Below, one piece after another: positions 4,406-48,348 of a stretch of 64,000 nucleotides of DNA. The stretch lies in the NCBI GenBank assembly GCA_963713725.1, contig CAVQMZ010000024.1, positions 5,664 through 69,663 on the forward strand, written 5' to 3'. Position 1 is the stretch's first letter. The number at the start of each line of letters is the position of its first letter. The notes beneath the pieces were generated by a model. The model worked only from the letters and a program-made list of their open reading frames with translations. It had not been told where the DNA came from and searched no databases. Position numbers and translations under genes: made by a program. Source of the DNA: an uncultured Bacteroidota bacterium. Lineage in GTDB: Bacteria; Bacteroidota; Bacteroidia; Bacteroidales; GCA-2748055.

Positions 4406-4722
4406 TAAGGCTTATTTTAATTGCCCTGCTCGTTTTCATTTTGAACATCCCATTTGGATACTGGAGGGCAAATGTCAAACATTTTTCGCTTCAATGGTTC
4501 CTTGCCATTCACATTCCCGTACCCTTTATTGTGGCCCTCAGAATCCTGTCTGGCATTGGATTCGGCTGGTACACCTATGTTTTTTTAGTGGGCGCATTTT
4601 TCCTGGGGCAAAGATTTGGCTCGGTACTTATGAAATGGATCCATGAACGATGCCAACAGGAGTCTTCCTGCATTGTTATGGATCTGGTGCGCTGCTCGAA
4701 ATCCGGCAAGGGGGCGCTATGA
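4402..4722 (+). CDS. small integral membrane protein, unknown function
   Basis: 106-aa ORF with about three hydrophobic helices. Its start overlaps the helicase stop (ATGA), which suggests translational coupling. Confidence 0.5.
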   Translation: MIRLILIALLVFILNIPFGYWRANVKHFSLQWFLAIHIPVPFIVALRILSGIGFGWYTYVFLVGAFFLGQRFGSVLMKWIHERCQQESSCIVMDLVRCSKSGKGAL

Positions 4723-30668: not shown

Positions 30669-31196
30669 ATGAGCAAGACCGCATTATTTTACAGCCCGGA
30701 AGGCGGAAACGTAGATAGCGTAGCCAAAAAGCTTGGAGAACTGATTGGAAATGAAAAAGTTGATATAATTCCTGTAAAAAAAGTTAAACAGGGAGATTTA
30801 GATAAATACAATAAGATCATCCTTATAGGTTCTACTGTAGGAGCAGATCATTGGGATAACGAAATTATTGTAGATGAGTGGGCTGAGTTTTTTATGAAGA
30901 TTAAGGATAATAGTTTTGAGAATAAAAAGGTAGCTATTGTCGGACTTGGAAACAGTGTTTTATATCCTGAACACTTCGCGGACGGAATGGCTGTTCTTTA
31001 TGAAAGAATCAAAGAGCAAAATGGTGAGATATTGGGTAAGATTGAAGCGAAAGGTTATGATTTCACAGATTCGGAAGCTTTGGACGATAAAGGATTTTTC
31101 TGCGGATTAGCGATTGACGAAGACAATGAATATGATCTGACTGAAGACAGATTAAAAAACTGGATATCGATCTTAAAACCTGATTTTGAGTTTTAG
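30669..31196 (+). CDS. fldA: long-chain flavodoxin
   Basis: 175-aa ORF with an FMN-binding N-terminus (ALFYSPEGGNVDSVAKKL), VAIVGLGNSVLYPEHFADGM and a long-chain insert. The gene is markedly A+T-rich. Confidence 0.85.
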   Translation: MSKTALFYSPEGGNVDSVAKKLGELIGNEKVDIIPVKKVKQGDLDKYNKIILIGSTVGADHWDNEIIVDEWAEFFMKIKDNSFENKKVAIVGLGNSVLYPEHFADGMAVLYERIKEQNGEILGKIEAKGYDFTDSEALDDKGFFCGLAIDEDNEYDLTEDRLKNWISILKPDFEF

Positions 31197-31199
31197 GGC

Positions 31200-31480
31200 A
31201 GTTTGAGGATCTTCCTTGTAGTAATAAGATCCTTTGACCTGATGGTCTGGCTGTTCCAATCCACATAAAACCCTGGCTGTCCTTCAAAATAATTGTGGAG
31301 CATCTGACGACAATCCATCCTCTGTGGAGATATGTTCACTATGGTACCACTTGGGCCATGATTCAACTTGGGGAAAGGTTTTCGCGAGGGTCAGATTCAG
31401 ATTTTCCAGCCCTAAAGTATCTTTTACTCCATCAGAAGGGTGGTATCGAAATGTTCAATTTGCTGGTAGCGTGTTAGTCC
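31200..31480 (-). pseudogene. remnant of the N-terminal propeller region of a Y_Y_Y/hybrid sensor regulator gene (truncated, frameshifted)
   Basis: Minus-strand frames read ...HISTEDGLSSD... and KDSQGFMWIGT..., which are typical two-component-regulator-propeller repeats. The reading direction runs into the flavodoxin 3' end with no room for the rest of the gene. Confidence 0.55.
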
Positions 31481-31509
31481 GGTGTTAAAACTAACTTTGG
31501 AAGTTCTAA

Positions 31510-31757
31510 AAAAGCATGTGTCCAAATTGCTTTGGCCAACAGGTTAGGTATAAAAGTTACCCTATTGCCTCAATATTGTCAATGGTGGGTCGTCTCCTGG
31601 ATTTGCTGGACCCTTCTGCTGATATTTCAAGAGGGGAGAGGCTTTGCTTTTCCTGATGAGTGGAGGATACACTCTTTTTGCGTTGCAAAGCGATGAAAAA
31701 AGGGTGTTTCTAATATCACGCTGATATATAATCAATACACATAAACCTTAAGATCTA
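31510..31757 (+). repeat. repeat copy A: degenerate 3' half-site, conserved multi-hairpin module (31526-31707) and a 50-nt extension shared with copy B
   Basis: Hand alignment to copies B-E finds ATTGCTTTGG...TTTCAAGAGGGGAGAGGCTTTGCTTTTCC...GGATACACTCTTTTTGCG...AAAAGGGTGT, followed by TTCTAATATCACGCTGATA...CCTTAAGATCTA. Confidence 0.75.
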
Positions 31758-31825
31758 GTCTAAAAGGTTCTTATCAGCGGTACTGTTACCATATTGGTAA
31801 CTTTTTTTATATTTGAGGAAATTTT

Positions 31826-32119
31826 ATGCGAATTATTGCAAAAAGAATCATAAGGGAATTCTGGGAGAAGTATCCTGATGCCGAAGAAGCATTGCGAACC
31901 TGGTACCGTGAATCATCCAGGGGAAAATGGCATGATCCGAATCATTTGAAAACTCATTTCGGTCATGCCAGAATAATAGGTGCTAACAGAGTGATATTTA
32001 ACATCTGTGGCAACAAATACCGGCTTATAACCGAGATTAACTACACGAGGGGGTGGGTTTTCATTCGTTTTATAGGAACCCATTCTGCATATAATAAGAT
32101 TGACCCAAAGAAAATATAA
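31826..32119 (+). CDS. higB: type II toxin HigB-family mRNA interferase
   Basis: 97-aa ORF MRIIAKRIIREFWEKYPDAEEALRTWY...NRVIFNICGNKYRLITEINYTRGWVFIRFIGTHSAYNKID, a strong family-typical sequence. Confidence 0.9.
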   Translation: MRIIAKRIIREFWEKYPDAEEALRTWYRESSRGKWHDPNHLKTHFGHARIIGANRVIFNICGNKYRLITEINYTRGWVFIRFIGTHSAYNKIDPKKI

Positions 32120-32124
32120 TTGAT

Positions 32125-32484
32125 ATGTACCAGGTAAAACCAATTAAATCGGAAGAGGATTATGACAATGCGCTTAAGCGTATGAAAGAGATATTTCACG
32201 CAGAAGAAGATACAGAGGAAGGGGACGAGGCCGAAATACTCATGTTGATTATCGAAGATTATGAGGAGAAGTATCATCCCATTGGTAATCCTGATCCCAT
32301 AGAAGCCATTAAGTTCATGATGGAGCAAAAGGATCTGAAACAAAAAGATCTCGCAGAAATCCTTGGGTATAGGAGCCGTGTCTCAGAAATCCTATCCGGG
32401 AAAAGGAAGCTGAATCTGGAAATGATTCGCAGACTTCATGAAAAATTGAATATCTCCTATGAAACACTTATGGGCAGGTATTAA
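32125..32484 (+). CDS. higA: HigA-family antitoxin (XRE-type HTH)
   Basis: 119-aa ORF starting 5 nt after higB. It contains IKSEEDYDNALKRMKEIF...PDPIEAIKFMMEQKDLKQKDLAEILGYRSRVSEILSGKRKLNLEMIRRLHEKL. Confidence 0.9.
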   Translation: MYQVKPIKSEEDYDNALKRMKEIFHAEEDTEEGDEAEILMLIIEDYEEKYHPIGNPDPIEAIKFMMEQKDLKQKDLAEILGYRSRVSEILSGKRKLNLEMIRRLHEKLNISYETLMGRY

Positions 32485-32507
32485 TAGCATACTGAACGGG
32501 AATATGA

Positions 32508-32872
32508 CGCAATTCCTGTCAACATAGGACAAACAGCCAGTGGCTGTTTGGGCCAGGCTGTGGGTGGCTACCGATATAGGGAAAGGAAAAGCCCTCTATC
32601 TGATTTTATGTGAATCAGCGCAGCTGAAAGGGATTTGCTTCTTTTGCACTAGAATGTACTTGCATTAAGTTAATATAGCTTTGGGAACCAAAGTGATAAA
32701 TGCAATTTTCTGTAGGTCTTGTACCATTTGTTGAATTTTGAAGAGGGGAGAGGCTTAGATTTTTCTGGATGGATGGTGGATACACTCTTTTTGCGATGCG
32801 GAGAAACGTGAAAAGGGTGTTTACTGATACGCTGATAAACAATCCTTTATCACATCAACCTTTAAGATTCTA
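32508..32872 (+). repeat. repeat copy B: branched hairpin (32521-32612), type-1 3' half-site, multi-hairpin module, shared extension
   Basis: It starts 24 nt after the higA stop. It contains AACATAGG, two internal hairpins, TTTTATGTG, then GCACTAGAATGTACTTGCATTAAGTT and the module ending GGGTGT at 32820. The extension runs to about 32872. Confidence 0.8.
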
Positions 32873-32912
32873 TGGCGAACTTATAAAGCTATCAACAATT
32901 ATCCATATCACT

Positions 32913-33525
32913 ATGAGTGAGGAAAACAATCTAACATTATCAGATGAAGTCGTAATGGACAAAATCCATTTGTTTAGAGGTGTTAAAGTAATGCTAGACA
33001 GAGATTTGGCCGAACTCTACGGTGTGACTACAGGTAATCTGAATAAAGCTGTAAGTAGAAACATAGCTCGGTTTCCTGATGACTTTATGTTTCAACTTAC
33101 CAAAAAGGAGTTCGATAACTTGATATTCCAAATTGGAATATCAAGTTGGGGTGGTCTTCGTAAACTTCCACGAGCCTTTTCCGAGCAGGGAGTTGCCATG
33201 CTTTCAGGAATTCTACACAGCGAAAGGGCCATCAAGGTTAACATCCATATTATGCGAGTATTTTCTCGGATGCGTGAAATGCTTGAAGCCCACAAAGAGA
33301 TCCTATATAAAACTTGAATCCCTAGAAAGAAAAGACTTTGAACAGGATGATAAAATCATGATAATCCTGGAATACATAAAGCGACTTGAAAAAACCCAGT
33401 TTAATGGAGGTCGCAATTTACGTCCTCCAATAATCCGCATCTTACAGGGAAAAGCATTTGCGGGATGGCTTGAGATGCAATTTAATATAATACTCTTGAG
33501 AAGGTCGCAAATCCCTTCAACATAG
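32913..33525 (+). CDS. ORF6N (KilA-N-like) DNA-binding domain protein; frameshift at the A4 run 33309-33312; 3' end uncertain
   Basis: From ATG 32913 the sequence reads MSEENN...IHLFRGVKVMLDRDLAELYGVTTGNLNKAVSRNIARFPDDFMFQLTKKEF...WGGLRKLPRAFSEQGVAMLSGILHSERAIKVNIHIMRVF. The C-terminal coiled part (KLESLERKDFEQDDKI...) continues in the frame of ORF 33133..33525. Confidence 0.75.
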
Positions 33526-33818
33526 GACAAACAGCCAGTGGCTGTTTGGGCCAGGATGTGGGCGGGTACCGATATAGGGGCAGGAAATGCCCTATATCTG
33601 ATTTTATGTTAATCAGCGCAGCTGAACGGGATTTGCTTCTTTTGCACTAGAATGTACTTGCATTATGTTAAGATTGCTTTGGTAACCAATGCTATACATC
33701 CGACTTTTCTGGTAGAATCCCAAATCAAATATTTAATTTCGAGAGGGGAGAGGCTTTGGCTTTTCCGGATGATAGATGGATACACTCTTTTTGCGAAACG
33801 AAGCAGCGGAAAGGGTGT
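33506..33818 (+). repeat. repeat copy C: outer stem, branched hairpin (33519-33610), type-1 3' half-site, multi-hairpin module
   Basis: The sequence runs CGCAAATCCCTTCAACATAGG...TTTTATGTTAATCAGCGCAGCTGAACGGGATTTGC, then GCACTAGAATGTACTTGCATTATGTT, then the module ending GGGTGT at 33818. Confidence 0.85.
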
Positions 33819-33840
33819 AAAGTCGGTAAACTGTTCAAGA

Positions 33841-34159
33841 TTACACTATTGGAATCCCTTCTTTTTTTACGATCTGAAGCAGGGGTGAAACTTCATCATT
33901 GTCGAATCGGGAAAGACCAACAGCAAAAGGTTCAATTCGGCGGTCAACTTTGCGGGTTAATTTCCAGATCAGTCCATAAGCAAGATCATCAGAACTGTCA
34001 TCAAACCTCCTGGAAACCAGCATTACATCAATATCACTTCCTTCAGTTCCTCATTCCGGCTGCACTTCCAAAAAGAAAGGCCTTCTCGATCTGTAAACCA
34101 GAATCGTTCAGAATCCTAACATATTCTGAGACTTTGCTTATAGTTTCCTTTCGATCCAT
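33841..34159 (-). CDS. nucleotidyltransferase (MNT-like) partner of the HEPN protein; one frameshift near 34040-34062
   Basis: Manual translation gives MDRKETISKVSEYVRILNDSGLQIEKAFLFGSAAG and then a frame break. It continues as ..EGSDIDVMLVSRRFDD... in ORF 33841..34023. This is the GSxxxG...DxD NTase signature. Confidence 0.7.
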
Positions 34160-34518
34160 ATCAACATCTCCTTTGTTTTATTCAGATACTCAACGACTTT
34201 ATCTTTTGTAGGTATTACAGGATTGTAATCGGGATACCGACCTTCCAACTGATATTTCATCAGAATCCCAAGGAAATCCTCATAAATCTCTTCAAACTCA
34301 ATATTGGAAAGATCCAGTAGATATATCAGGTTGTGTGTTTTGGGAGGAATTTGTCCTGTATCTTTTACCACAAGTGCCTTAAGGGCTTTCTCAATTGTTA
34401 AATGGCAAAAGAAAAGACCATGAATACTCCTTGATTCCCTGATTAACAGCTCAGCAGTATCCAGATCGGATTTTGCAGAAGTGATCCAATATTCTATTTG
34501 CTTTTCAATATTAAGCAC
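34138..34518 (-). CDS. HEPN domain protein
   Basis: 126-aa ORF; EYWITSAKSDLDTAELL...HGLFFCHLTIEKALKALVV...PKTHNLIYLL is typical of the HEPN (PF05168-like) family. It overlaps the downstream NTase start by 22 nt. Confidence 0.75.
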   Translation of the reverse strand: MLNIEKQIEYWITSAKSDLDTAELLIRESRSIHGLFFCHLTIEKALKALVVKDTGQIPPKTHNLIYLLDLSNIEFEEIYEDFLGILMKYQLEGRYPDYNPVIPTKDKVVEYLNKTKEMLIWIERKL

Positions 34519-34579
34519 ACCAGTAGTTTTACTAAAAGTACATATTTTTCCAGAAAAGCCTTTGCACAGAAGACAACAA

Positions 34580-34640
34580 AAGCGGAGCGAAGGCTGGAGA
34601 AGGCTTTTGAGCGCAGGCTGTGGGGCAATTTAACATAATA
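34580..34640 (+). repeat. repeat half-site G: conserved 40-nt leader plus ATTTAACATAA, with no 3' partner
   Basis: AGGCTTTTGAGCGCAGGCTGTGGGGCAATTTAACATAAT aligns with the 5' sides of copies E (35981-36019) and F (36980-37019). The hairpin is replaced by an ORF fragment directly after AACATAA. Confidence 0.75.
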
Positions 34641-34986
34641 CTTTTTCAATAATGATATTTATGTAGGTACTGATGTGGGGGTATATTCTAAATCTATAAA
34701 TGACAATGCCTGGCAAGAGGAAACGGATTTTCCGAAAGTCCTAGTTTCAGATTTATTATTAAATAAATCTAGTGGGGATTTGGTGGCTGGCACATACGGG
34801 AGGGGTGTTTGGAGGAAAAACCTAGGTGCTGGGGATTGTGTTGATTTTACGGATTTAACCATCGATTCTTATCTTGACTGGAATGGTAGTCCTGTATGTT
34901 TTAATATAACTGTGGCTTCTGGTGGAACGTTAAATATTACAGGGAGTGTAGATATGGCTAATAGAGCGCAAATCCTTTCAACATAA
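34639..34986 (+). pseudogene. internal fragment of a beta-propeller/BNR-like secreted protein gene, bounded on both sides by repeat elements
   Basis: The open frame begins at 34639, immediately after the repeat half-site: YFFNNDIYVGTDVGVYSKSINDNAWQEE...LVAGTYGRGVWRKNL... There is no start context or signal peptide. The frame ends inside the left arm of repeat D. Confidence 0.6.
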
Positions 34987-35243
34987 AATCGGTATCGATA
35001 TAGGGTCGCTACACGCCCTATATTGATTTTATGTTAATCAGCGGAGCTGAACGGGATTTGCTTCTTTTGCACTAGAATGTACTTGCATTATGTTGATATT
35101 GCTTTGGTAACCAAAGCGATACATACAATTTTCAGTAGGCCTTGTACCATGTATTGAAATTTCAAGAGGGGAGAGGCATTTGCTTTTCCGGATAGTTGAT
35201 GGATACACTCTTTTTGCGGAACAGAGTGGAGTGAAAAGGGTGT
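34967..35243 (+). repeat. repeat copy D: outer stem (34968-34975 / 35054-35061), clean 56-nt hairpin (34980-35035), type-1 3' half-site, multi-hairpin module (35098-35243)
   Basis: AACATAAAATC pairs with GATTTTATGTT in 11-bp arms, with an inner ATATAGGG/CCCTATAT stem. The module hairpins are listed in the findings. Confidence 0.85.
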
Positions 35244-35258
35244 ACAAATAGGAACTAC

Positions 35259-35591
35259 TTATTTTAGTAATTCTGCAACCTCTTTTCGTAATAAGGGCAG
35301 AGATCGTTTGATAATCAACCACAAGATATCTGGGGTTATGCTGTCATAGCCATGAATTATCCTGTTTCTTGTATCAACTATCTTTCGTGAATCAGAGATA
35401 GCAATATCAGGAGAAACTTTTAATATTCTATTCAAAGCCTCACCAATGATCTCTATGTTCCTTTCAATTGCCTTTTGTGTTTTAAGGTCCTTCTCAAACT
35501 CGAAGTAATCAATATCCGCTGGCAAGAAATCGTAAATCTGCTTAATAGATATCCGAATATCTTCAAGCCAAGTATTGATCTCATGCTTCAT
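35259..35591 (-). CDS. hepT: DUF86/HepT-type HEPN toxin
   Basis: 110-aa ORF with the Rx4H motif in DTRNRIIHGY and IERNIEIIGEA, typical of DUF86. It overlaps the upstream NTase gene by 11 nt. Confidence 0.85.
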   Translation of the reverse strand: MKHEINTWLEDIRISIKQIYDFLPADIDYFEFEKDLKTQKAIERNIEIIGEALNRILKVSPDIAISDSRKIVDTRNRIIHGYDSITPDILWLIIKRSLPLLRKEVAELLK

Positions 35592-35880
35592 ACAAAAGCT
35601 TTTTCGACTTATTGATGCTAATGGTAAGATATTTATTTCTGAGCGCCTTTTGTTCGAGTAGGTCTATCTGACGATTCAGCAAATCCTCTAGTGCAAATTT
35701 CAACCCAAAATAATTCTCAGCATATTCTATTGGGTCCAAGGTATTAAAATCCACCACTAAATCTACATCGCTATCCTTTGTGAACTCAGTATTTAGAACG
35801 GAACCAAAAGCAAATAGCTGTCTGACCTTGTGATTTTCACAAAGCTTATTTATTTCACCTATGTAAGAATCCAGATACAT
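35581..35880 (-). CDS. mntA: MntA-type nucleotidyltransferase antitoxin
   Basis: 99-aa ORF containing LFAFGSVLNTEFTKDSDVDLVVDF (GSx10-DxD). Confidence 0.85.
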   Translation of the reverse strand: MYLDSYIGEINKLCENHKVRQLFAFGSVLNTEFTKDSDVDLVVDFNTLDPIEYAENYFGLKFALEDLLNRQIDLLEQKALRNKYLTISINKSKKLLYEA

Positions 35881-35961
35881 AACTTATGTACAAAAATAGA
35901 AAATCCGACATAACTAGTGTAACCTAAACAAGAAAAGACTGTGCGCAGGATATGTTGAGAC

Positions 35962-36253
35962 TAAAGCGAGGTAGCGGGAAGGCTTTTGAGCCCAGGCTGA
36001 GGGGCTATTCAACATAATGTCAAATTCTAGTGTCAGAGCAGCAACCAGGCAACATAGCAAAGATAGCCGCAGCTGCACTAGAATGTACTTGCATTATGTT
36101 GATATAGCTTTGAGATCTATAACATATTACATGCCTAATCTGAATAATTTCCTGAAACAGTCAATGCAATTTCGAGAGGGGAGAGGCTTTTGCTTTTCTG
36201 GATGATTGGTTAGTACACTCTTTTTGCGGAATGTAATGAAGCGAAAAGGGTGT
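35962..36253 (+). repeat. repeat copy E: 40-nt leader, type-1 hairpin (36007-36104), multi-hairpin module ending 36253
   Basis: The hairpin is ATTCAACATAATG TCAA ATTCTAGTG ... CACTAGAAT GTACTTG CATTATGTTGATA, with two perfect 9-bp stems. The module then follows. Confidence 0.85.
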
Positions 36254-36281
36254 CAAAGGCATTGACCTCTGACTCGAGCTT

Positions 36282-36629
36282 CTATAGTGAATCTATAATT
36301 GACTGGATTTGCAATCTGTTTTCCGGAAGATGATTGATACAAACATCCCATATGATTTCATAGTCAATCCCAAAATACTCGTGGCTTACCTTATTTCTAA
36401 GCAGATACATTTCAGCCCAAGGAATGTCTGGATTATTTTCTTTAATATGACTGGGCAGATTTTTTGAAGCTTCTCCGATAATTTCAAAATTCCGGATTAC
36501 TGCATCTACTGTCTTATAATCCTTTTTGAACTGGTCAAAAGTGTATCCTTCAAGATATTCAGCGATTCTACTCATTGCAACAAGAAGATCTTGTAAATAC
36601 ATCGTATAATTGCGCTCCTCCTTTTTCAC
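36282..36629 (-). CDS. hepT: DUF86/HepT-type HEPN toxin (second, divergent copy)
   Basis: 115-aa ORF with the Rx4H motif in LLRNKVSHEY and AVIRNFEIIGEA. Confidence 0.85.
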   Translation of the reverse strand: MKKEERNYTMYLQDLLVAMSRIAEYLEGYTFDQFKKDYKTVDAVIRNFEIIGEASKNLPSHIKENNPDIPWAEMYLLRNKVSHEYFGIDYEIIWDVCINHLPENRLQIQSIIDSL

Positions 36630-36920
36630 TTATGCGTAATTAACTTGTGCGAGAATACTATCCCTAATTTGCTCTTTTAATGCATTTTTGGTAACCAAAT
36701 CTACTTTTCTGCCAAATATACTTTCCAGATAGATTTGAAGTGTGAAATAATTCCAACCTATGGGTTTGTATAATTCTACCAGCATATCAATATCACTTTC
36801 ATCCGAAGCTTCATTATTTGCAAAAGATCCAAAAATGCCAATCTCTTTAACAGCATATTCCTCAGAAAGGATCGGTTTCAACTCTCGAAGTTTATCGAGT
36901 ATATCATTCTTGTTAAGCAT
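36630..36920 (-). CDS. mntA: MntA-type nucleotidyltransferase antitoxin (second copy)
   Basis: I moved the start to the internal ATG at 36920 (MLNKNDILDKLRELKP...IGIFGSFANNEASDESDIDMLVEL). The track ORF's 32-aa N-terminal extension reads through repeat copy F. Confidence 0.8.
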   Translation of the reverse strand: MLNKNDILDKLRELKPILSEEYAVKEIGIFGSFANNEASDESDIDMLVELYKPIGWNYFTLQIYLESIFGRKVDLVTKNALKEQIRDSILAQVNYA

Positions 36921-36965
36921 ATTCAAATATATTGAATTTTTGCGGATAGATTCAGCATAATCTAC

Positions 36966-37100
36966 TAGAGAGGCGGAAAAGCTTTTGCGGGCTGGCCTAG
37001 TGGGGCTATTTAACATAATGGCTGATTCTAGTGTCAGCGCATCAACCAGGCAACAGTGAAAGAAAGTCGCAACTGAACTAGAATTAATATTATGTTAAAT
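36966..37100 (+). repeat. repeat copy F: leader plus type-1 hairpin (37008-37100) only; last unit of the array
   Basis: ATTTAACATAAT (37008-37019) and ATTATGTTAAAT (37089-37100) are perfect 12-nt inverted arms, with an inner ATTCTAGT/ACTAGAAT stem. No conserved module follows. Confidence 0.85.
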
Positions 37101-37167: not shown

Positions 37168-38508
37168 TTATAAGTTCTCCTTCAGTGCTTTAACCCTTTC
37201 ATACTGATCCATCATCTGCTCCTTGTAATATATTCTCTGAAGGATATCAAGGGTTTCATATTTCACTGTAGGATTATCAACATTAAGCTCGTAAGCCTTC
37301 TCAAGAGCTGGGATTGCCTCTGAATATTTTTCCTTACCCAAGTTTCAAAAGCTCTCCCTGGTGGGCTCATGCTCTTCCACATTTGATCTTTCATAAAAGT
37401 CAGCTCCCTGCAGGTAATAAATGTATCCCATATCATACCAGATATAATAAATGGTTGGATCCAGCTCTCCAGCCTTCTGGTAAGCTCAATTGCCTTATCA
37501 ATGAATTCAACTTCTTCCTTATTAATAAGCAGCCTTCCTTTCCAATAATAAGTCTCCGCGATGTCGGGATTATTTGCAATGGCTTGATCCATAAACTCAA
37601 TGCCTTCATCAAATTGGCCTAATAGTATGTAAGTATCTGCAACATTGGCAATTATATTAACTGAGTCAGGGTATTTTGCGAATCCTTCTTTTAATGCTTC
37701 CAGTACCTGCAAGGGTATCTCCAATGGCAAAATAATCCATTTTAATCTGCAGGTAGGTATTGGGACCACCATAATTAACCTCAGCCAGTTGCTCATAATA
37801 ATTGATTGCTTTCTTGTAAAGCTCATCATCATCAGTTTTACTGGCAATTTCCCTGGAAATAATACCGGAATACTGAACCATAATGGTATCAAATTCACCT
37901 GCAAATACGGGCTGGTTATTAACTTCAAGGACATTCTCAAAACAATTTAGAGCCGCCTTATAATCATCTTTATAATAGCTATTTACACCGTCTCTCTTCA
38001 ACTGGTCCTTAATGGTATCGAGATTGGCTTTTGCTTTTTCTTCCAGCTTCCCTGCTTCATCCAGCTCAAGTGCTTTTATATAGGCTTCCATGGATACTCT
38101 CAGCGGATCTTCATTAATTGGATTTATCTTCTCATAATACTGAAGATTCCCATTGACGAAGGTATATTTGATTTGCTCATAAATATAAGTTTCATACTTA
38201 GCGCCATCCTTTGTCTTCAGTCTCAATACTCAGAGGCTCTTTATATAAGAGTATAACAGCAGTTGTTGGCGATGCCTTCCTGGATTTCTTCAAGACCAAT
38301 CATAAAAACATCCTGGTAAATCTCTCCCCTTTTGAACCAGGTAGTAGCTTTCTGACTTTTCTTTTGCGTCTTGTATTTCCAGATCGCTTTTGTCCGCTTT
38401 CTTTTTTACTGCATTATAGTTTAGTGGAATAAATGTAGAGCCATCCTGCGCATTCATCGCAGGGATTGCTAACAGAGCCACTAGCAGTGTAACAAATAAC
38501 TTTTTCAT
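37168..38508 (-). pseudogene. TPR-repeat lipoprotein/secreted protein, at least three frameshifts
   Basis: The N-terminus MKKLFVTLLVALLAIPAMNAQ comes from an internal ATG of ORF 38290..38553. The middle is covered by ORFs 37666..38226 and 37263..37940. Manual translation of the C-terminus gives ...GKEKYSEAIPALEKAYELNVDNPTVKYETLDILQRIYYKEQMMDQYERVKALKENL, with the stop at 37168-37170. Confidence 0.7.
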
Positions 38509-38581
38509 TTCGATTGTGAATTTAATGTGATGCAAAAATATAAACTTTAACAATAACCTTCAAATAAGATGCCAAAACAGC

Positions 38582-41100
38582 TTAGTCCTCTTTAGTACCC
38601 TCAGGACTATCCTCTTCTGAGTCTTCAGTATTTTCCACTTCCTGATCGTCATTATCTTCATTGGATGGAACCTGGGTTGCAGCGGCTATCTGATCTCCTT
38701 CTCTAAGGTTAATCAGTTTGACTCCCTGTGTGTTACGACCCATAACCCTCATTCCTTTCACTGCTAAACGGATGGCAATACCACTCTCGGTAATGATCAT
38801 CAGATCATCATCGTCGGTAACCGCTTTAATGGCAATTAATTTACCTGTCTTATCGGTTACATTGATGGTTTTAACACCCTTTCCGCCACGATTGGTAAAG
38901 CGGTAATCGTCAATAGCAGAACGTTTGCCATAGCCATGTCTCTGAAATAACCAGGATATCCTGTTCTCCCTGGTTTGGCAGTCACAATGCCAACTACCTC
39001 ATCCTTGGGACCTCCAAGGGTCACCCCTTTTACTCCCGAAGAAGTTCTTCCTACGGACCTCACTGTATTCTCATGGAAGCGGATGGCTTTGCCAGATTTA
39101 ACAGCCAGCATAAGTTCCATATCGCCATCTGTAAGCCTGGCATCCAGAAGCATATCTCCTTCCCTGATGATAATGGCGTTGATCCCATTTTGCCTGGGCC
39201 TTGAATAAGCCTCCAGTCTGGTTTTTTTAATCACACCTTTCTTAGTTGCCAGTACAAGGTAATTGTTGTTTATATACTCCTCGTCCTTGAGGTTCTTCAC
39301 GTTTACAAAGGTTTTTACCGTATCCTCCTTGTCGATATTGATCAGATTCTGTATGGCTCTTCCCTTGCTGGCCCTTACCCCTTCCGGAATTTTGTAAACT
39401 TTAAGCCAGTAGCACTTTCCATTCTCCGTAAAGAATAAAATGGTGTTGTGCATGGTGGCCACAAACATATTCACCATGAAGTCCTCTTCCCTGGTGGTAC
39501 TTCCCTTTGCACCAACACCTCCCCTGTTCTGAGTCCTGAATTCGTGTAAGGGTGTACGTTTGATATATCCCAATTTGGATATGGTAATAACCATATCATC
39601 ATCTGCATAAAAATCTTCGGGATCAAATTCACCTTCATCTGGAACCATCTCGGTTCTTCGCTCATCTCCATAAGCTGCTTTGACCTCCAGGAGCTCCTCT
39701 TTAATGATCTCCATTCTGAGCCCTTCATCCGCAAGAACTCTCTTGTAAAATTCGATCATCTTCATGAGTTCGTCATACTCATTCTGCAATTTTTCGCGTT
39801 CGAGTCCAACAAGACGCTGCAAACGCATCTCCAGAATGGCTTTGGCCTGAATTTCGGTAAAGCCAAATTTTTCCATAAGTCCTTCACGGGCTTCGTCAGG
39901 AGTTCTTGAAGCCCTTATAAGAGTAATCACCTCATCAATGTGATCAAGTGCTTTCAGGAGGCCTTCCAGGATATGAGCCCGCTTTTCAGCCTGATCCAGA
40001 TCATACTGGGTTCTACGCACAACCACATCATGCCTGTGTTCCACAAAATAGGTTATGATCTGCTTCAGATTCAGCGTCCTGGGCCTTCCTTTTACCAGTG
40101 CAATGTTATTTACATTAAAGGAGGTTTGAAGCTGTGTATATTTTAAAAGGTTGTTCAAAACCACATGAGCACTGGCATCCCTTTTAATGATGATAACAAT
40201 CCTCATTCCCTGACGGTCTGATTCATCGTTGATGTAGGAAATGCCTTCGATCTTTTTATCATTAATCAGATCAGCGGTTTTACGAATCAGCTCAGCCTTG
40301 TTAACCAGGTAGGGAATTTCTGTAATAATAATCTTTTCCCGGCCCGTGTCGGTTATTTCAATCTCGCTCTTGGCGCGGACGACTATCCTTCCTCTACCCG
40401 TCTCATATGCTTCCACCACGCCATTATATCCATAGATAATGCCTCCGGTAGGGAAATCAGGAGCTTTCAGTATTTCGGTAAGCTCACTAATTTCTATTTC
40501 GTTGTTCTCGATGTATGCAACAATGGCATCTATGCTATCGCTCAGGTTATGCGGGGGCATATTTGTTGCCATACCCACTGCAATTCCGGAAGTACCATTA
40601 ATAAGGAGTGTCGGTATCCTCGTAGGCATCACAGTTGGTTCCTCCAGTGTATCGTCAAAGTTGAGCTGGAAATCTACTGTGTCCTTTTCCAGATCAGCCA
40701 TAGTCTCTTCTGCAATTTTCTGAAGGCGGGCCTCTGTATACCTCATGGCAGCCGGACTATCTCCGTCCACCGATCCAAAGTTTCCCTGGCCCTGAACCAG
40801 AGGATAGCGAAGGGACCATTCCTGGGCCATTCTAACCATCGCATCATAAACAGATGTATCTCCATGAGGGTGATACTTACCCAGCACCTCTCCTACTATC
40901 CTGGCTGACTTTTTATATCCTCTGCTGGCAGTTACTCCCAATTGCTGCATCCCGTATAGCACCCTGCGGTGAACCGGTTTCAATCCATCCCTCACATCAG
41001 GAAGTGCTCGCGAAACGATTACCGACATCGAGTAATCGATGTAGGCAGATTTCATTTCTTCCTCAATGTTAATTCTCAGTATTTTTTCACCTTCGGCCAT
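38582..41100 (-). CDS. gyrA: DNA gyrase subunit A, with two apparent +1 frameshifts at about 38945-38975
   Basis: The 747-aa ORF has canonical GyrA sequence ([20 protein letters not shown]-terminal beta-pinwheel repeats). Its tail becomes nonsense, and the true continuation (EQDILVISE / [53 protein letters not shown]...) lies in the other two frames and ends with ORF 38582..38800. Confidence 0.9.
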
Positions 41101-48276: not shown

Positions 48277-48348
48277 GCGGGAGTAGCTCAGTGGTAGAGC
48301 ATCAGCTTCCCAAGCTGAGGGTCGGGAGTTCGAACCTCCTTTCCCGCT
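48277..48348 (+). tRNA. tRNA-Gly (anticodon CCC)
   Basis: A 72-nt cloverleaf folded by hand: acceptor GCGGGAG/TTCCCGC, D arm GCTC-AGTGGTA-GAGC, anticodon stem TCAGC/GCTGA with loop TTCCCAA, and a T arm with loop TTCGAAC. CCA is not encoded. Confidence 0.9.

Follow-up and report, generated by a model that had tools for sequence, protein, structure and literature searches.

Tandem CTX-like mini-cassettes probably integrated at the chromosomal dif site of an uncultured Bacteroidales bacterium

We analyzed a 64,000-nucleotide stretch (hereafter the window) of contig CAVQMZ010000024.1, assembly GCA_963713725.1, from an uncultured Bacteroidales bacterium, which carries at 31.5–37.1 kb an array of small gene cassettes separated by structured repeats. 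Judging from its sequence, this array probably consists of tandem miniature elements, ~1-kb cassettes resembling the CTX type of integrative mobile elements exploiting Xer recombination (IMEX), which were integrated at the chromosomal dif site in the replication terminus through the host Xer recombinases. The array lies at dif, has no integrase of its own, contains hairpins of the CTX design and shows breakpoints on the XerC side, all of which are sequence-level features of a CTX-type IMEX.

Seven repeat units, all on the + strand, lie in the array with small toxin-antitoxin (TA) or ORF6N cassettes between them, as found by direct reading, with a repeat finder and in an alignment of the seven units. 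An earlier, sequence-only reading of this DNA had described seven direct copies separating mini-cassettes, all in the same orientation in an A+T-rich stretch, with two types of hairpin that share a 3' half, and all of this was reproduced; the GC content is 36–41% in the array versus 45–48% in its flanks. The motif GGATACACTCTTTTTGCG, which belongs to a conserved non-coding module, occurs five times, always on the + strand (0.06 expected), and the half-site GCACTAGAATGTACTTGCATTATGTT, the shared right half of the hairpins, occurs four times against an expectation of zero. Neither is found elsewhere in the 64 kb. Its description of a full unit as a hairpin followed by a module holds for units B, C and D (type-2 hairpin, shared right half and module) and for unit E (type-1 hairpin and module) but not for A, which is a module only, F, which is a type-1 hairpin only, and G, which is a left half only; moreover, the conserved unit reaches ~45 nt further left than the YTTYAAC boundary proposed for it.

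The last unit of the array ends in a 28-bp canonical Bacteroidetes dif site, CTGAACTAGAA-TTAATA-TTATGTTAAAT, at 37073–37100 on the + strand (XerC arm 37073–37083, central region 37084–37089, XerD arm 37090–37100). A dif pattern matched the window exactly only at 37079–37100, where 0.01 matches were expected, and allowing one mismatch gave one further match, at 34628–34649 on the minus strand, in half-site G. The XerD arm is identical to that of Escherichia coli dif, GGTGCGCATAA-TGTATA-TTATGTTAAAT (Kono 2011), and the whole site is close to the dif sites predicted for Cytophaga (TTGTTATATAATTTACATTATGTTAAAT, i.e. TTGTTATATAA-TTTACA-TTATGTTAAAT), Pedobacter (TAGTCACATAATTAATATTATGTTAAGT, i.e. 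TAGTCACATAA-TTAATA-TTATGTTAAGT) and Flavobacterium psychrophilum (ACGAACTATAATTTATATTATGTAAAAT, i.e. ACGAACTATAA-TTTATA-TTATGTAAAAT) (Kono 2011 supplement). The cumulative GC skew rises from ~9 kb, reaches its maximum at 34–36 kb and then falls, and long open reading frames (ORFs) are on the + strand to the left of the array end and on the − strand to its right. The FtsK-orienting polar sequence GGGNAGGG was found outside 31500–37100 in ten copies on the presumed leading strands versus a single one on the lagging strands, its polarity converging on the dif at 37.07 kb; this is a small sample of the E. coli motif and is supportive only, and the FtsK of Bacteroidales may read a similar motif. 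Together, the skew maximum, the flip of ORF orientation and the polarity of GGGNAGGG place the terminal dif at the replication terminus.

A scan of 185,579 species genomes with the module pattern GGGGAGAGG-N20-45-ACACTCTTTTTGC returned 33 loci, 28 of them in Bacteroidales or in metagenome-assembled genomes of Bacteroidota and five being chance matches in other phyla, and a scan of metagenomes with the module pattern returned at least 120 stretches. The module is present in more than 140 Bacteroidales contigs, and the arrays are common in sediment and marine metagenomes. The module-to-module spacing clusters at ~1.0 kb, complete cassettes having a median length of 1037 nt. The order that recurs in these loci is a left extension, ...GGCTATTTAACATAATGCC-TGATTATAGTGACAG, a loop, TTGTCCTATAATGTACTYGCATTATGTTRAT, ATWGCTTTGRT with further backbone, and the module; the arrays start with a module that no hairpin precedes and end with a hairpin that no module follows. 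In 20 loci including the window, a canonical site with a 6-nt spacer (TTGTCCTATAA, i.e. ...CCTATAA, or …CTAGAA-TTAAT[AG]-TTATGTTAAAT) occurs exactly once per locus, in the same orientation as the modules and always downstream of the last one. Its central region and XerD arm are invariant and its XerC arm is variable, as expected if this arm is derived from the cassette. In the same 20 loci, the internal direct sites have spacers of 9–10 nt (TGTACTYGCA), and the inverted left halves have 7-nt spacers and a perfect XerD arm.

The type-1 hairpin is made of such an inverted dif-like site with a 7-nt spacer, paired with a direct dif-like site with a 9–10-nt spacer. When folded as DNA, type-1 hairpins gave z values of −3.0 to −6.6, showing an XerD-arm stem (AACATAATG/CATTATGTT), an asymmetric internal loop formed by the mismatched central region, and then an XerC-arm stem (ATTCTAGTG/CACTAGAAT; in other lineages ATTATAG(T)GACA/TGTCCTATAAT) with one conserved bulged, extrahelical T. 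In the CTX phage, attP(+) likewise contains two inverted dif-like sites, with central regions of 12 bp and 5–7 bp. This design, in which two inverted dif-like sites with a long and a short central region can fold on each other, is that of the type-1 hairpins and not that of units B, C and D. Their type-2 hairpins contain a second pair of inverted dif-like half-sites with mirrored spacers (direct 5–6 nt, inverted ~11 nt), nested where the inverted XerC arm and the loop of type 1 belong; unit C, and also the related locus L030, keep the upstream inverted XerD arm of type 1.

The hairpins also bear on whether the sites work as duplexes, i.e., whether the cassettes are double-stranded Xer modules like the plasmid dif (pdif) modules of Acinetobacter or IMEX of the VGJ/TLC type, with the inverted half-sites being incidental. 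In favor of such modules are the dif-like nature of the sites, the presence within type-2 hairpins of a direct site with a 5–6-nt spacer that could work as a duplex, and the lack of a partner for the XerC arm of the type-2 units. The internal direct spacers of 9–10 nt, however, fall outside the usual 6–8 bp, and the inverted partner is conserved across 80 distinct hairpins. The pairing is also strand-specific: at the pair just inside the XerD arm, 68 distinct internal hairpins have T-A (32), the wobble pair T·G (29), C-G (5) or a mismatch (2), and the complementary strand would have A·C mismatches in 29 of the 68, a pattern indicating that pairing is kept on the + strand only. Since in addition the direct dif-like sites all point one way and do not alternate as in pdif modules, we regard the duplex explanation as unlikely. 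The comparison with dif-module arrays made in the sequence-only reading therefore stands as far as the Xer/dif kind of site is concerned, but not for the Acinetobacter plasmid model, and CTX-type IMEX are the closer relatives. The XerC-cleavable arm in the right half of the hairpin sits on the + strand, which would be the lagging-strand template if the fork comes from the left.

L034, a 14-kb predicted viral contig from IMG/VR and the only viral contig that the right-half pattern matched, also has a single, complete type-1 hairpin (GGGCTACTTAACATAGTG...TTGTCCTATAATGTACTTGCATTATGTTAAAG) at 4476–4600 (−) but no module. Its proteins have almost no Pfam or PHROG matches, and it could be a full-size element with the same attachment site.

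Comparison with related loci indicates where the cassettes enter. Like the array of the window, those of several related loci have a flavodoxin gene on one side and, on the other, a TPR gene with gyrA behind it. L028 comes from a close relative, with ~83% nucleotide identity over the TPR/gyrA flank, and shares the HEPN/nucleotidyltransferase (NTase) cassette (87%) and a gene fragment (95.5%) in conserved order. There, nothing separates the type-2 hairpin and XerC arm, ...TTTGCACTAGAA, from TTAATATTATGTTAAATAG, the dif. The counterpart XerC arm in the window, that of unit D, leads into TGTACTTGCATTATGTTGAT..., two mntA/hepT cassettes follow, and TTAATATTATGTTAAATAG appears only after the XerC arm of unit F. 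These junctions indicate that the two extra cassettes were inserted exactly at the border of the XerC arm and the central region, and that dif was restored to their right. When the oriented loci were compared all against all, cassette-length similarities were likewise seen between contigs whose neighboring cassettes differ. Among the metagenome contigs, for example, L137 has as its last cassette one that L054, L107 and L130 have at an internal position, and the homology extends only ~1 nt beyond the XerC arm, up to the first T of the central region, a base common to both. The breakpoint lies at CTAGAA|T.

This position also speaks to the reading offered earlier, that the array is a cluster of attC sites lacking integron-integrases (CALIN), in which an IntI encoded elsewhere would recombine the hairpins as attC sites. 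The resemblance is real, in that the hairpins are imperfect and end in sequences like RYYYAAC...GTTRRRY (ATTTAAC...GTTAAAT in F), an extrahelical T is conserved in the left XerC-arm stem, the cargo is rich in TA genes and all copies are direct. The breakpoint CTAGAA|T, however, lies upstream of GTT, by 13 nt in the internal sites and by 9 nt in dif, and is the position of XerC cleavage, not the G|TT of the integron R' box. The terminal site is a canonical dif at the switch of the GC skew, both arms match the Xer arms of predicted Bacteroidetes dif sites over 11 nt and not only RYYYAAC/GTTRRRY, and no IntI-like gene was found at either array boundary in ~150 related loci. Integrons are, moreover, very rare in Bacteroidetes according to the literature. 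We therefore abandon the integron reading, considering a CALIN very improbable.

A group II intron was found in L030 (4883–6719, +), antisense to the array, between the flavodoxin gene and the array and just upstream of an ORF6N cassette. It matches Rfam group-II-D1D4-6 with 130.6 bits, encodes a 429-aa reverse transcriptase with a YADD motif, and recalls the group IIC introns that target attC hairpins.

In the CTX phage, XerC exchanges a single strand and replication completes the integration, which is irreversible, and the duplex prophage sites are inert. By analogy, a cassette of the array would read 5' to 3' on the + strand as a long central region of 9–10 nt, an XerD-like arm, a non-coding backbone with the module, the cargo, the inverted dif-like site, the loop and the direct XerC arm. 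In its single-stranded + form, the inverted and direct half-sites would pair into a forked hairpin with an XerD-arm duplex, an unpaired central bubble and an XerC-arm duplex. At the border of the XerC arm and the central region, XerC would then swap a single strand of the hairpin with the duplex chromosomal dif, and the junction would be resolved by replication. What is seen in the sequence is the old XerC arm fused to the long spacer of the incoming cassette, which as duplex DNA would be a poor Xer site, and the XerC arm of the cassette fused to the chromosomal central region and XerD arm. Because of this second junction a working dif is regenerated at the right end, where the next cassette can enter, so the array would grow at the dif side and decay at the far side. 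No integrase is found nearby because, in this scheme, the recombinase acts in trans. Since the breakpoints place the module at the 5' end of the cassette, it is part of the mobile backbone rather than of the recombination core.

Several observations weigh against integration of the CTX type. The cassette spacer (TGTACT...) and dif (TTAATA) share only one base, T, beside the XerC cleavage point, and in the CTX phage it is the homology beside this point that decides compatibility. The direct XerC arm of the type-2 units B, C and D has no pairing partner, a misfit to a simple hairpin model; cassettes of this type are either dead relics or users of a duplex route. The xerC and xerD genes lie outside the window. 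Finally, the cassettes are not single-stranded-DNA phages or satellites with a rolling-circle replication function: they carry neither replication nor phage genes and the module is absent from viral contigs.

The searches behind these statements were as follows. A phmmer search of the six frames of the window with an XerD probe found no tyrosine recombinase, in agreement with the sequence-only reading, although this negative is only moderately strong. Pfam overviews covered 150 + 38 ORFs from the loci and 49 from the window, and for the latter showed only housekeeping families among the 25 of 73 listed. In six-frame translations of 154 loci from genomes and metagenomes, the same XerD probe found no tyrosine recombinase except three consecutive genes (segments of 433, 349 and 345 aa) right after a module at L088:1594–4885, identical in L057, both among the 120 metagenome loci; these genes probably represent an unrelated inserted recombinase-in-trio element within the array. 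Complete cassettes (65 in all) provided 102 distinct ORFs of at least 60 aa from those up to 3.5 kb, and among the 25 of 28 Pfam families listed for these ORFs there was no recombinase, no Rep and no phage gene. The cargo families were ORF6N (24), NTP_transf_2/Polbeta (20), HepT (12), HEPN (7) and DUF1016/YhcG (5 and 3), together with HigB/HTH, DUF5615/DUF433 and UPF0175. Neither of two module patterns matched any of 2.9 million viral contigs. Large inter-module intervals contained no Rep, their contents being proteins secreted by the type IX secretion system (T9SS) and a Mu-like transposase.

This transposase, a Mu-like DDE enzyme (rve and Mu-transpos_C_2), is encoded at L115:6156–7703 (−), in an interval of 6.3 kb between modules. 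Proteins secreted by the T9SS (Por_Secre_tail, Peptidase_S74, beta-helix, Peptidase_C10) are encoded repeatedly in or beside the arrays near dif, i.e., at 34640–34973 in the window, at L028:2724–4180, and in L007, L049, L026, L115 and L021.

Among known systems, the CTX-type IMEX of Vibrio cholerae (CTXφ and RS1) share with the array the lack of an integrase, the location at chromosomal dif and the tandem arrangement. The CTXφ attachment site is also a hairpin of ~100–150 nt made of two inverted dif-like sites, the spacers being 9–10 and 7 nt here versus 12 and 5–7 bp in CTXφ; in both, the crossover falls at the border of the XerC arm, one side retains a restored dif and the internal sites are poor as duplexes. 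Unlike CTXφ, the elements described here are in a Bacteroidota host, are only ~1 kb long without replication, morphogenesis or regulatory genes, carry TA or ORF6N cargo, and have an extra invariant backbone module and a mirrored type-2 class of hairpin; they are also known from sequence alone. In the host order itself, Bacteroidales microvirus (BMV) proviruses are flanked by dif-like sites, some with an extra inverted dif-like site, XerC/D homologues exist in the phylum, and Xer-dependent integration of a single-stranded-DNA element has been proposed for these viruses (Krupovic and Forterre 2011, PMC3091885). Host order, lack of integrase and dif-like flanks are thus common to the BMV/Alpavirinae proviruses and the cassettes, but the former are single proviruses of 4.5–6.3 kb with capsid and Rep genes, whereas the latter are gene-poor 1-kb units in arrays, and no homology to phage genes was found in the cassettes.

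Sedentary chromosomal integrons and CALIN also hold ordered small cassettes that are rich in TA genes and mostly promoter-proximal-independent, use folded single-strand sites with an extrahelical base and take up cassettes at one fixed end. Here, in contrast, the sites are dif-like and not attC, entry is at dif and not at attI, the breakpoint is elsewhere and the recombinase is presumably the housekeeping Xer and not IntI. The pdif modules of Acinetobacter are similarly small, include TA modules and are bounded by Xer-type sites while lacking their own recombinase, but these are duplex sites of alternating orientation on plasmids and not direct hairpin sites at the chromosomal dif.

The conserved module falls into three subfamilies with the invariant motifs GGGGAGAGG, ACACTCTTTTTGCG and AAWGGGTGT common to all. 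Depending on the subfamily, its conserved core is found in each of the three reading frames, and the module is therefore non-coding. Neither the hairpin nor the module matched Rfam at the gathering threshold or at E ≤ 5, which bears out the earlier remark that the part of ~146 nt matches no described family. A structured RNA was considered and rejected, as RNAalifold on 42 copies gave one invariant stem with a conserved U·G and neither compensatory changes nor covariation, and a promoter was rejected as well, the spacing being unfit for the sigma-54 and Bacteroidetes −33/−7 motifs (compared by eye only). The module folds better on the + strand (−12.2 versus −6.9 kcal/mol). We guess that it acts on single-stranded DNA and hypothesize that it may be an origin or termination signal for the rolling-circle Rep of a helper, as suggested by CTX/RS1, whose tandem copies give rise to single-stranded circles; it might instead be a complementary-strand origin, a packaging signal for a helper or an Xer accessory site.

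A conserved and structured non-coding unit with an extremely conserved module might suggest an ordinary dispersed repeat, such as a miniature inverted-repeat transposable element (MITE), a repetitive extragenic palindrome (REP) or a structured RNA gene, lying between small genes by chance. This seems hardly credible, since the copies are confined to one stretch of the window, have a single orientation and always end at dif, the array occupies the same place between flavodoxin and TPR-gyrA in several related loci, a cassette-sized unit of ~1.04 kb recurs with different neighbors, and there is no Rfam match and no covariation.

Beyond integration of CTX-like cassettes at dif, we tentatively raise the possibility, which we hold to be somewhat less likely than its opposite, of an integrase-free, integron-like system in environmental Bacteroidales. 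Its ~1-kb cassettes would share a backbone of ~250 nt, consisting of the CTX-like dif hairpin and the invariant module, be excised or copied as single-stranded circles and be captured at dif by XerCD. The circles might arise on the lagging-strand template when Xer recombines one hairpin with another, or through a helper Rep that acts on the module, in the way that CTX/RS1 circles arise from tandem copies. We found no account of such arrays in literature searches that covered integrons in Bacteroidota, IMEX in Bacteroid* and Xer systems resembling integrons. The IMEX that are known are mainly phages and islands from a few Proteobacteria, and here such elements appear to have been reduced to a minimal gene-cassette format in another phylum. 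If true, this would be a second, independent route to integron-like stockpiling of genes, using a housekeeping recombinase and folded single-stranded DNA, and the replication terminus would be a stockpile of TA and defence cassettes exchangeable between species. The terminus is thereby flagged as a hot spot of TA and defence gene turnover.

The array of the window is laid out as follows, on the + strand unless stated otherwise. The flavodoxin gene on the left chromosomal flank (30669–31196) was identified as an ORF; Flavodoxin_1 is among the families of the related loci, and in L002 and L022 the array comes directly after the end of the homologous gene. Unit A (31514–31715) has a degenerate left junction, GCATGTGTCCAAATTGCTTTGG, and a module (core 31622–31710) without hairpin, and marks the oldest end of the array. 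Cassette 1 (31826–32484) carries higB (31826–32119; HigB_toxin, 1.1e-28) and higA (32125–32484; HTH_3, 9.5e-10). Unit B (32509–32823) contains a type-2 hairpin (32509–32638), XerC arm (32644–32654), 10-nt spacer (32655–32664), XerD-like arm of the variant TTAAGTT (32665–32675) and module (32734–32823). Cassette 2 carries an ORF6N gene (32913–33525; ORF6N, 2.1e-31) with a frameshift at ~33317, its C-terminal part being in another frame. Unit C (33477–33821) starts with the remnant type-1 inverted XerD arm (33477–33491), followed by the type-2 hairpin (33507–33636), XerC arm (33642–33652), spacer (33653–33662), XerD-like arm (33663–33673) and module (33734–33821).

Cassette 3 (33841–34518, − strand), also present in L028 with the 87% identity given above, consists of a HEPN gene (34138–34518; HEPN, 7.1e-20) and an NTase remnant (33841–34140); the ORF at 33841–34023 beside HEPN had no Pfam match and is read as a broken NTase gene from its position. 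Half-site G (34586–34639) comprises the left extension and the inverted XerD arm ATTTAACATAA (34628–34638), the remaining hairpin being deleted; L028 retains ~85 nt more. It is followed by a truncated gene fragment (34640–34973), cut at the start of the type-2 hairpin of unit D and 95.5% identical to L028:2724–3059, where a longer ORF continues. Unit D (34968–35246) contains the type-2 hairpin (34968–35061), XerC arm (35067–35077), spacer (35078–35087), XerD-like arm (35088–35098) and module (35157–35246), and cassette 5 (35259–35880, − strand) carries hepT (35259–35591; HepT-like, 1.4e-18) and mntA (35581–35880; Polbeta/NTP_transf_2, ~1e-13).

Unit E (35965–36256) has the left extension and a type-1 hairpin (fold z = −5.2) with inverted XerD arm (36007–36017), inverted XerC arm (36024–36035), direct XerC arm (36073–36083), 10-nt spacer (36084–36093) and XerD-like arm (36094–36104), followed by the module (36167–36256). 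Cassette 6 (36282–36920, − strand) carries hepT (36282–36629; HepT-like, 8.1e-30) and mntA (36630–36920), the latter assigned from its position and from a length that agrees with the 96-aa ORFs found beside HepT-size ORFs of 115 aa in related cassettes. The TA content proposed in the sequence-only reading is thus supported by Pfam for HigB, HTH_3, ORF6N, HEPN and, twice, HepT, once together with its NTase; the other two NTase partners are assigned by position. The left part of unit F (36970–37072; fold z = −3.9) consists of the left extension, inverted XerD arm (37008–37018), inverted XerC arm (37025–37036) and loop, and leads into dif. The TPR gene and gyrA of the right flank (37168–41100, − strand), both frameshifted in this assembly, were recognized from the TPR and DNA_gyraseA_C families of related loci and from synteny with L028, L004 and L007.

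Frameshifts split four genes of the window, ORF6N (32913–33525), NTase (33841–34140), TPR (37168–38553) and gyrA (38582–41100), which suggests an indel-prone assembly. Exact-protein look-ups of flavodoxin and gyrA found neither on record, probably because of the assembly frameshifts. Just upstream of unit A, a 62-nt block at 31436–31497 (CAGAAGGGTGGTATCGAAATG...GTTAAAACTAA) has 82% identity with the stretch that in L026 lies just upstream of the first module. We rejected it as a common attB, as it is shared with L026 alone and absent from the other genome loci and the rest of the window. An extra motif, GGGTGTTT(N5-9)ACGCTGATAA, directly follows the module in cassettes with + strand genes (31715–31760 and 32823–32870 in the window; also L003, L004, L020, L028 and L032) and is lacking in cassettes with − strand genes; it may be a cassette promoter or operator. 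A tRNA at 48277–48348 (+) is the sole Rfam match of the window that reaches the gathering threshold.

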